A stretch of 64,000 nucleotides of DNA from Botryllus schlosseri (lineage: Eukaryota). A program made the position numbers and the translations under genes. A model generated the notes under the pieces. The model was not told the origin of the DNA. It did no database searches and saw only the letters and a list, made by a program, of their open reading frames with translations. Where the stretch lies: contig CM119373.1 of NCBI GenBank assembly GCA_051294905.1, positions 5,830,001 to 5,894,000 of the forward strand, given 5' to 3'. Positions within the stretch are counted from its first letter, which is position 1. Each line of letters opens with the position of its first letter. This document shows, piece after piece, positions 54,090 through 56,161 of this stretch.

Positions 54090-56161
54090 TCAAATCGTTG
54101 GTTGATGTGTCCGAATCGATAGTCGGAGTCGGTGGTTGTTGAATGTTTGCATCTGGGTCGGAAGTAGAGATTGATGTCTCGGCGACATTGGTTGGGTTTG
54201 CGAGAGATTTGGTATCGTCCTCGAGAATGTCAGAATCGTGGCCCGTACGGATCGTTTGCAGTTCGTTCGCGTCTCCCTGAACGTTGCGAGTAATCCTTTC
54301 ATCAACCGCATACCGTCGCCGGCGGAGTCGTGCACGGAGGGCCTGAAATGAGCTAGCGGTTGATTCACGATTAAACGTTCTCTAAGCCTATGACGATTAC
54401 AACGTAATAATCGGCATGAAAAGTGTAAACCCCATAGCATCGTAGCGACAAACCAGCAAGAAAGTAAAAGTTTAAGCAAAGAGTTGGTAGTAGTGGATAA
54501 AAAGGATAAAATGCTACAAATAATGGCTTCGGACGCTACTCTTATTGGCTTTACGGGGTCTATTTGGGTAGTGTCATCCTGTCTACTGCTGTTCGAAACG
54601 TACGAAGCGGACAGGCTCCGTAGACGATGTACTAGCAGCATGGAACTGGATATGTGAGATAAAACATTATCGTAATCTGTGCTAAATGACGAGTCCATCT
54701 TCCTGAATAAATGCATAAAGGTTTCTGTGATGTTGTCAACACGTGGTGAACCCAATAAATCGTCAATGCTGAGGTTCATCGAAAATTGATTTGAGTGACT
54801 GAGGCATTGAGTGATGTCAGAACTCCATTTTGGTACTTGAAATAGGAATCACCCACCTTGAATACTCTGGTTGCGTTTGCGGAGCCAGTGTCGATATAAT
54901 GAGTCTTCAAAAAGGTTGTGTTGTTGTCGAATAATTGACCGAAATAAGTTTTATCTGTCCTGAACGAGATGAGTGGTCGGGCACTAAGTGTTCCGTCCGG
55001 GAAAAATAGGTTGTTGTGGACGGTGACGTTTTGCGTTATGCAATGTAGTTTGTATAAGAACGAGTCAAACACTCCTAGTCTCGAATTGTTGGGTGCTATA
55101 TTGAACGTCGAGTCCGGTGACATTGGGGTCATCGATTTGTGGACGTTGTAAAATTGTTGTTCTATTGTGCAAATGAGGTAGTCCAAGTATGAAATCAGTC
55201 TCAGGTGTCTATCCATTGAATCATCATGCAATTCCTGCATCTGTCCTAACAAGAGACGCGTCGAAGTACTTGAGTCGTTGAGTCTTTCTGTCGAAAGTTT
55301 CAACTCAAGGGTCTTGGCATCGCTTAAACTGCAGCGGATTAGAATTAAAGAGATTCCACCTATGACGCATACTGCTCGTTTGGGTAAGCAGCGGACCAGA
55401 CCGTGATTACATTTGCGCACTGATTGAAAAGGTAGAGCCAGGTCGGGTATTTCCACCCAGGATACTTCGTGGTTGCGAGTCGTGTGCATAACAATGTTTG
55501 TTCGCATCCTTATCGGCGCCGTAGGACACGCATATTTGTTTGTGATAGAGGGGGCCCATATGATGGTCCCTTGGTCTGTTTGACAGTGCCCAACCTTCGC
55601 TTTACGTCCAGAAAGGTCAAATATATCGGCTCTTAGTTTGCTGGTTATTGAATCTTATACAATAGGTATGGTGTGTACGATTAGGTTGGGCAGAAATCCG
55701 GACCGTGAGCTGGCCCATTTCCATTCCAAGTGTGGTTTCTTCGTGGTTGAAAGTAATCCGTCAGCTTGTTCAGTCAGCTGTCCGTATGCCGACAAGTGTG
55801 TGACTATTGCATGTTGGCATTCCACTAACGGTATACTGTAACGTCGTTCCTCTCCGATATTCTGTGCGTAAGATCAAAAAAAAAACAATGTGTGTCCCAA
55901 CTTTGTTGCTACAAAGCATATTTTCCCATCGAAACCGTGAAATCGGTTTGTCAAAGCGTATACATTTGCTAGGCCCGACTTTGAGTGCATAATCGGGCCG
56001 TGTTCGAATTTGTTTGGTGGCTGAATATCGATCAAATCAGATGCGGCTTCACGTCCACATACGTTAGCCGTAATAGAAATCGGAGAGTCGTTTCCTTTAG
56101 TTGGGCGCGCTAACAGCCACGCCGTCAAAACCGACAGGACAATCGATTGCCGACAAAACAT
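54090..56161 (-). pseudogene. env: Env: class III viral fusion glycoprotein with signal peptide and C-terminal TM; in-frame stops at 55874-55876 and 55655-55657, frameshift near 54778
   Basis: Signal MFCRQSIVLSVLTAWLLA; DGKIC...FFF...VECQHAI...WKWASS...HCQTDQGTIIW; GQMQEL...ICTIEQQ...MSP helix; NVTVHNN...ARPLISFR...GQLFDNN...RVFKVGDSYFKY; TM LLKLLLSCWFVATMLWGL. Confidence 0.85.

Follow-up and report, generated by a model that had tools for sequence, protein, structure and literature searches.

A 64,000-nt stretch of the Botryllus schlosseri genome (assembly GCA_051294905.1, contig CM119373.1, positions 5,830,001 to 5,894,000 of the forward strand; hereinafter, the window) contains, on its minus strand at 53848..56161, a dead gene that very probably represents env, encoding a class III membrane fusion protein (fusogen) of the herpesvirus glycoprotein B (gB) type, in an old and defective copy of a Ty3/gypsy long terminal repeat (LTR) retroelement with an env gene ('errantivirus' in the wide sense). 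The evidence comes from translation of the gene, comparison of the env sequence and of a family profile with Pfam and the PDB, structure prediction, and comparison with multiple related copies in the same genome.

The minus-strand translation of 54776-56212, with stops rendered as X, comprises 479 positions and contains all the strings from which the first-pass annotation of this DNA had derived a read-through ectodomain with two in-frame stops, namely DGKIC, LFFF[TGA]SY, IPLVECQHAI, EWKWASS, IPIV[TAA]DSIT and HCQTDQGTIIW in the N-terminal half, and GQMQEL, ICTIEQQ, MSP, NVTVHNN, ARPLISFR, GQLFDNN and RVFKVGDSYFKY in the C-terminal half. The start methionine, which is followed by a hydrophobic N-terminus, is located at 56161, and the two stops are a TGA at 55874-55876 and a TAA at 55655-55657. 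The env pieces of a sister copy, compared with the window using tblastn, matched three successive frames (-3 at 56287-54782, -2 at 54788-54351 and -1 at 54372-53851), so that there are two frameshifts, from -3 to -2 near 54782-54788 and from -2 to -1 near 54351-54372, rather than the single one previously noted, and the gene runs on to 53848 instead of ending at 54090. The shifted frames encode the hydrophobic membrane anchor, followed by a tail of about 190 residues whose end is like that of the sister copies. The signal peptide, the single C-terminal membrane anchor and the cytoplasmic tail are all present and can be read directly from the sequence, and the membrane region of gB is aligned by the family profile. 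In addition to the stops and frameshifts, the window env has Arg in a conserved alignment column that is occupied by Cys in 32 of 34 sequences.

On its own, the window env matched the Pfam family Glycoprotein_B (PF00606; E 1.6e-4, 21.7 bits, residues 394-463) and, over the same stretch, four sets of gB chains in the PDB (E 0.003-0.012). This stretch, which HMMER aligns to pseudorabies virus gB, is the region of the gB motif ..RPL.SF..GQL..N....F..G..Y that the first-pass annotation had recognized in the C-terminal half. An exhaustive HMMER search with env yielded 40 relatives at E<=0.001, the best with an E-value of 2.9e-24 and 25% identity, and a Pfam scan of 24 of these detected Glycoprotein_B in 20 at E<=0.01, with one relative (P0012, 44.9 bits) above the cut-off of that family. 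A family profile was constructed from an alignment in which the window protein was joined by nine frames of its own genome and 28 relatives from databases; run against the PDB, it matched 54 gB chain sets with E-values from 4.6e-24 to 1.2e-14, from about profile position 194 to the membrane anchor. Judged from these sequence comparisons, the likeness of env to gB is far above chance.

The env family also displays the domain order and fold of gB, with a fusion domain I, a pleckstrin homology (PH)-like domain II, a central helix III of 46 residues and a crown IV, so that, together with the profile matches, the class III assignment in the first-pass annotation was right. In structural alignments with herpesvirus gB (e.g. 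PDB 2gum, 9zwe and 7kdd), the identity is 11-17%. A Foldseek search of predicted viral structures (BFVD) placed at the top a rhabdo-like virus glycoprotein (6.3e-20), a herpesvirus gB (3.4e-19) and a nyavirus glycoprotein (7.5e-19), followed by more gB as well as chu-like and entomopoxvirus proteins. In a language-model search with an intact relative, Monjiviricetes_fusion clusters came first, followed by gB and rhabdovirus clusters.

Two hydrophobic motifs stand out in domain I. The motif [YF]-F-[FW]-G is nearly invariant in the 34-sequence alignment (F in 33 sequences, followed by F or W in 31 and G in 30) and forms the tip of a hairpin in the structural model (111-114, between strands 94-110 and 115-126); in the second motif, x-W-P, the tryptophan is found in 32 of the 34 sequences, and the W-P lies in the loop 157-167 of the model. 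Both motifs are putative fusion loops, as suggested by their positions in the model and in agreement with what has been reported for published elements (Chary & Hayashi, eLife 2026, PMC13524379; bioRxiv 10.1101/2023.10.26.564294). The first stop of the window env, TGA, occupies the conserved G column of the first motif. Given that many genomic matches contain an in-frame TGA, recoding of this codon was considered and rejected because the TGA falls at different places in the copies examined: upstream of the start methionine in L013-L015, at the position of a Cys codon in L002 and L005, and in the Gly column in the window. A separate observation is that copies L004, L006 and L007, like the window at 55874-55876, are broken at or beside the run of T-rich Phe codons of the first motif, with a stop just upstream in one copy, a frameshift within the run in two, and the TGA in the window; this run may be a slippage-prone spot.

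The first-pass annotation had gone further and presented env as a bridge between rhabdovirus G and herpesvirus gB. Taken literally, this would make env a true intermediate or mosaic in which a rhabdovirus-type N-terminal half is joined to a gB-type C-terminal half, a possibility that we consider unlikely although several observations point in its direction. Four PDB chains named 'Glycoprotein', including 8a1e, which is titled rabies virus glycoprotein, matched the family profile (E 2.8e-5 to 1.8e-4) at positions 64-198 only, and gB aligns by sequence only from about position 194. Among the 24 scanned relatives, Rhabdo_glycop_FD (PF00974) was found in three, none above the 22-bit cut-off (best 21.6), and Monjiviricetes_fusion (PF24664) in four, one of them above the cut-off; the nearest Atlas clusters are those of Monjiviricetes_fusion, and the top BFVD row is the rhabdo-like glycoprotein, beside herpesvirus gB. 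The window env itself showed no match to the rhabdovirus domains (PF00974, PF24833) in Pfam at E<=1. We read the family as gB-type in architecture and roughly equidistant in sequence from the fusogens of herpesviruses and of negative-strand RNA viruses, rather than as a mosaic, and regard the notion of a bridge as overstated.

The assignment to a gypsy-type element comes from relatives in the same genome (495.5 Mb in 219 contigs), where tblastn with env yielded 67 matches that form subfamilies at about 82%, 37% and 22% identity. Two copies of the 37% group (L013 and L015) have full frames for gag (560 aa), pol (1186-1187 aa) and env (767-770 aa). The domains RVT_1, RT_RNaseH_2, Integrase_H2C2 and rve were identified, in this order, in four pol frames of relatives, and the same succession of domains is found in the 1203-aa pol frame of one copy belonging to the subfamily of the window. 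A Ty3/gypsy-type pol, that is, reverse transcriptase (RT), RNase H and an integrase with the H2C2 finger, is thus found in the relatives only; no Bel/Pao family was detected among the Pfam matches of their pol frames at E<=0.01. Sister copies have LTR pairs with 4-bp target duplications. The layout of LTRs, tRNA primer binding site (PBS) and gag-pol-env is seen both in L013 and L015, with full frames, and in the window, where pol is deleted. The features of the window element are as follows:

53105..53428, minus strand: 3' LTR, about 324 bp, start approximate (blastn to sister-copy LTRs)
53848..56161, minus strand: env, class III (gB-type) fusion glycoprotein gene, dead (translation, Pfam, PDB, family profile, structure, tblastn)
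56272..56711, minus strand: C-terminal integrase remnant, downstream side of the pol deletion, overlapping the env start (matches approximately residues 342-535 in the frame of the C10 copy that bears the integrase)
56712..58053, no strand assigned: insertion of a DNA transposon resembling a miniature inverted-repeat transposable element (MITE), 1342 bp, with 32-nt terminal inverted repeats (96.9% identical over 32 nt) and a TA target duplication
58054..58290, minus strand: N-terminal pol remnant, upstream side of the internal pol deletion (collinear with sister L003 through the junction)
58215..59457, minus strand: gag, two overlapping frames (open reading frames of 329 and 94 aa) with one frameshift near 58468-58499
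59731..59837, minus strand: 57-nt tandem duplication of the LTR end and PBS region (repeat family D3, from reading of the sequence)
59811..59822, minus strand: PBS, directly after the LTR end, TGGCGCCCCGAG (exact complement of the tRNA 3' end CTCGGGGCGCCA)
59823..59871, minus strand: last 49 nt of the 5' LTR, the remainder missing (96% identical to 53105-53153, the end of the 3' LTR)

The window element lacks protease, RT, RNase H and the greater part of the integrase. The sequence beyond 59871 does not match the 3' LTR, and the 5' remnant, with two mismatches over 49 nt, is too short for dating by LTR divergence. The 3' LTR, which is separated from env by about 420 bp of untranslated sequence, ends with ...CAACTATA, the same as the 5' remnant, and has internal deletions, its length of about 324 bp comparing with about 630 bp in young sister copies. 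The gag frames gave a weak match to Pfam DUF7041 (E 0.008, below the cut-off), and the leader and gag of the pol-bearing copy are 84% identical to those of the window at the nucleotide level. The integrase remnant alone produced no Pfam match.

The tRNA 3' end CTCGGGGCGCCA is listed for one published ascidian element (supplement 1 of PMC13524379), and the second unit of the 57-nt duplication contains a different PBS-like 12-mer (59754-59765) that is identical to the PBS of the young sister copies. Accordingly, one element carries two different PBS-like 12-mers, the distal one being the PBS of the young sisters and the proximal one the complement of the published tRNA end. The transposon insertion is specific to the window copy: it is absent in all six sisters that were aligned across the junction (L003-L006, L008 and L011; L007 does not reach the junction), with empty sites displayed for L003 and L011. 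The site of insertion is no more than about 20 bp away from the junction of the pol deletion, a proximity that may be due to chance.

Several observations weigh against the interpretation of the window gene as a gB-type env of a gypsy element. The 21.7 bits of the window env are below the Pfam curated cut-off of 43 for Glycoprotein_B, and the env frames of three relatives at about 37% identity had no Pfam match at E<=0.01. No match at E<=0.001 emerged from a word-index protein search in which the read-through env was compared with 3237 candidates. The global TM-scores to solved gB structures are low (0.27-0.53), which we attribute to the pre-fusion versus post-fusion arrangement of the domains. 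Finally, the window itself lacks pol, and the label 'gypsy' comes from the sister copies by way of their Pfam domain set.

Two origins of env outside a retroelement have to be considered as well. The viral structures closest to it belong to herpesviruses and negative-strand RNA viruses, and it could therefore derive from a herpes-like or mononegavirus-like virus, as an endogenous, non-retroviral fragment that happens to lie beside retroelement debris; however, the same env follows gag-pol within LTR pairs in several copies in this genome, and all the way from the PBS to the 3' LTR the window element is collinear with them, which makes such an origin highly improbable. The ratio of nonsynonymous to synonymous divergence (dN/dS) between the window and sister copies is well below 1, as would be the case for a host gene domesticated for a role in cellular fusion, but the window copy contains two stops and two frameshifts, and a fully open env is missing from all 11 copies of the subfamily. 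No RNA data set was listed as containing the env stretch. Four RNA runs, of each of which 6-13% was read, gave 103 reads on 53000-60000, all of them fitting in part and running into unlike sequence, and more likely originating from related copies; they are uninformative either way on the expression of the family. A domesticated gene thus appears extremely improbable, and the env of a defective gypsy-type element remains the reading that we adopt.

The pol deletion in the subfamily is in frame: in the sister copy L003, a 285-aa frame matches approximately the first 75 and then the last 193 residues of the long pol frame (1203 aa) in the pol-bearing copy. Across this junction, L003 and the window copy are collinear, and at least nine other loci, in which the match to integrase starts at residue 340-343 in an open frame, have the junction in common with the window copy. 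Six pol-deleted copies were fetched (L023-L027 and L030; on C17, C1, C14, C13 and C110); the two LTRs of each copy show 99.84-100% identity across 362-631 bp, and in five of the six there is a perfect 4-bp target duplication, different in every case. Because of these nearly identical LTR pairs and distinct target duplications, the pol-deleted lineage is still or very recently mobile, and could be of interest to students of the persistence of non-autonomous retroelements. The pol-deleted copies fall into two size classes, one of about 6.2 kb with gag and the other of about 5.15 kb, in which most of gag is gone as well. The LTRs of the pol-bearing copy are 100% identical over at least 573 bp.

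Going by its divergence, the window copy is an old offshoot of the pol-deleted lineage. The nucleotide identity between the window and the young copies is 84-89% over env and the LTR ends and 72-77% across the junction between gag and the pol remnant, and the synonymous divergence (dS) of env is 0.33-0.54. In the same comparisons, dN/dS amounts to 0.15 in gag, 0.25-0.51 in the integrase remnant and, within env, 0.16-0.25 in the ectodomain and 0.42-0.45 in the tail. A conceivable but rather doubtful interpretation is that of a long-lived, still mobile non-autonomous lineage in which gag and the gB-type env would evolve under purifying selection, with RT and integrase borrowed from a pol-bearing relative. 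Against this interpretation, the lack of a wholly open env in the 11 subfamily copies implies that env was not needed for the latest jumps. Furthermore, dS is unequal between genes (0.12-0.52), as recombination with autonomous elements would give, a hint that recombination might also be a cause of the low dN/dS.

If this interpretation holds, a retroelement with an env gene can be maintained in a 'particle and entry only' form by parasitizing its autonomous kin, and the pol-deleted copies would be an animal counterpart of the non-autonomous Athila lineages. The latter, which have been reported to evolve under purifying selection in Arabidopsis, provide a plant precedent (Marco & Marin 2008, PMC2410132): like the pol-deleted copies, they are described there as Ty3/gypsy elements without pol functions that have open frames under purifying selection and are still amplifying. 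The obvious difference is that the hosts of Athila are plants. In addition, the env-like gene of Athila is not known to be a class III fusogen.

The product of an intact env of this family would be about 770 residues long and, as a type I membrane glycoprotein, would have a gB-like ectodomain between its signal peptide and a transmembrane helix, with a long cytoplasmic tail to follow. This ectodomain would comprise domain I with two putative hydrophobic fusion loops, the PH-like domain II, the central helix III and the crown IV. On the model of gB and the other class III fusogens, env can be predicted to form trimers on the membrane of the particle or the cell; the two loops would insert into the target membrane, and refolding from the pre-fusion to the post-fusion state would merge the membranes, allowing gag particles to pass from cell to cell. 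The window copy is incapable of all these steps. Its env is dead because of its two stops, the first of them inside the first putative fusion-loop motif, the two frameshifts and the lost conserved Cys; the element as a whole has a deleted pol, a truncated 5' LTR and a DNA transposon within what is left of pol. This copy is a fossil, unlikely to have any function.

Apart from the element, the window contains two pairs of direct repeats (49962-50056 and 62977-63097; families D1 and D4) that are 84-88% identical, lie 13 kb apart and flank the whole region; these look like copies of another dispersed repeat. An uninterrupted 544-aa open reading frame on the plus strand (48105-49739) has no Pfam match at E<=1, and its nearest language-model clusters are the CENP-I / Mis6 centromere proteins (scores 0.93-0.94, 189-195 shared features), a link that we report as a lead only; Chordata was the commonest group in the language-model search.

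Among the known class III fusogens, herpesvirus gB is longer than the env proteins of the window family (about 900 versus about 770 residues) and is carried by a DNA virus rather than by a retroelement; the window element has no gene for a gH/gL-like partner. The Monjiviricetes glycoproteins (PF24664; rhabdovirus G, PF00974) have in common with this family the class III fold, weak matches to fusion-domain profiles, comparable Foldseek E-values and the nearest language-model clusters. Among retroelements, gB-like env genes were reportedly described by Malik, Henikoff and Eickbush in 2000 in Bel/Pao elements such as Tas of Ascaris. The window family resembles the Tas-type elements in being an LTR retroelement with a gB-like env but differs in that its intact relatives carry the Ty3/gypsy Pfam set (RT_RNaseH_2, Integrase_H2C2).

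The closest known systems are the env-carrying Ty3/gypsy elements that Chary & Hayashi report across metazoan phyla, with ENV proteins either of the F type or of the HSV/gB type (HSV, herpes simplex virus); for the latter, AlphaFold trimers with five domains and fusion loops are presented, and the nine ascidian elements in supplement 1 of that paper are all of the gB type (PMC13524379). According to the same source, a global class III tree was not built, the sequences having been judged too divergent. The ascidian elements of the cysteine-bridge group denoted Tunicata_C3 show gag-pol-env inside LTRs, a tRNA PBS and a gB-type env with five domains and fusion loops. By eye, the strings for domains I-II in supplement 2 have the YFFFG and W-P motifs and the cysteine spacing in common with the window family; in this comparison, made by eye only, the identity is low. 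The window copy differs further in being pol-deleted and dead, and the window genome is not among the 11 ascidian assemblies of supplement 6. With gB-type gypsy env genes already published, the novelty that the first-pass annotation had attached to the capture of a class III fusogen by a gypsy element was overstated: the kind is already known from sea squirts and many other invertebrates, and the env family described here is probably an undescribed member of it. One more tunicate genome thereby joins the hosts of gypsy-type retroelements with a gB-like fusogen, and the conclusion of the published work that env genes of this sort are class III fusogens is reached again, independently, from raw sequence. 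The family further adds a data point on the place of these env proteins among class III fusogens, combining a gB-like structure with an about equal sequence distance to the proteins of herpesviruses and negative-strand RNA viruses.
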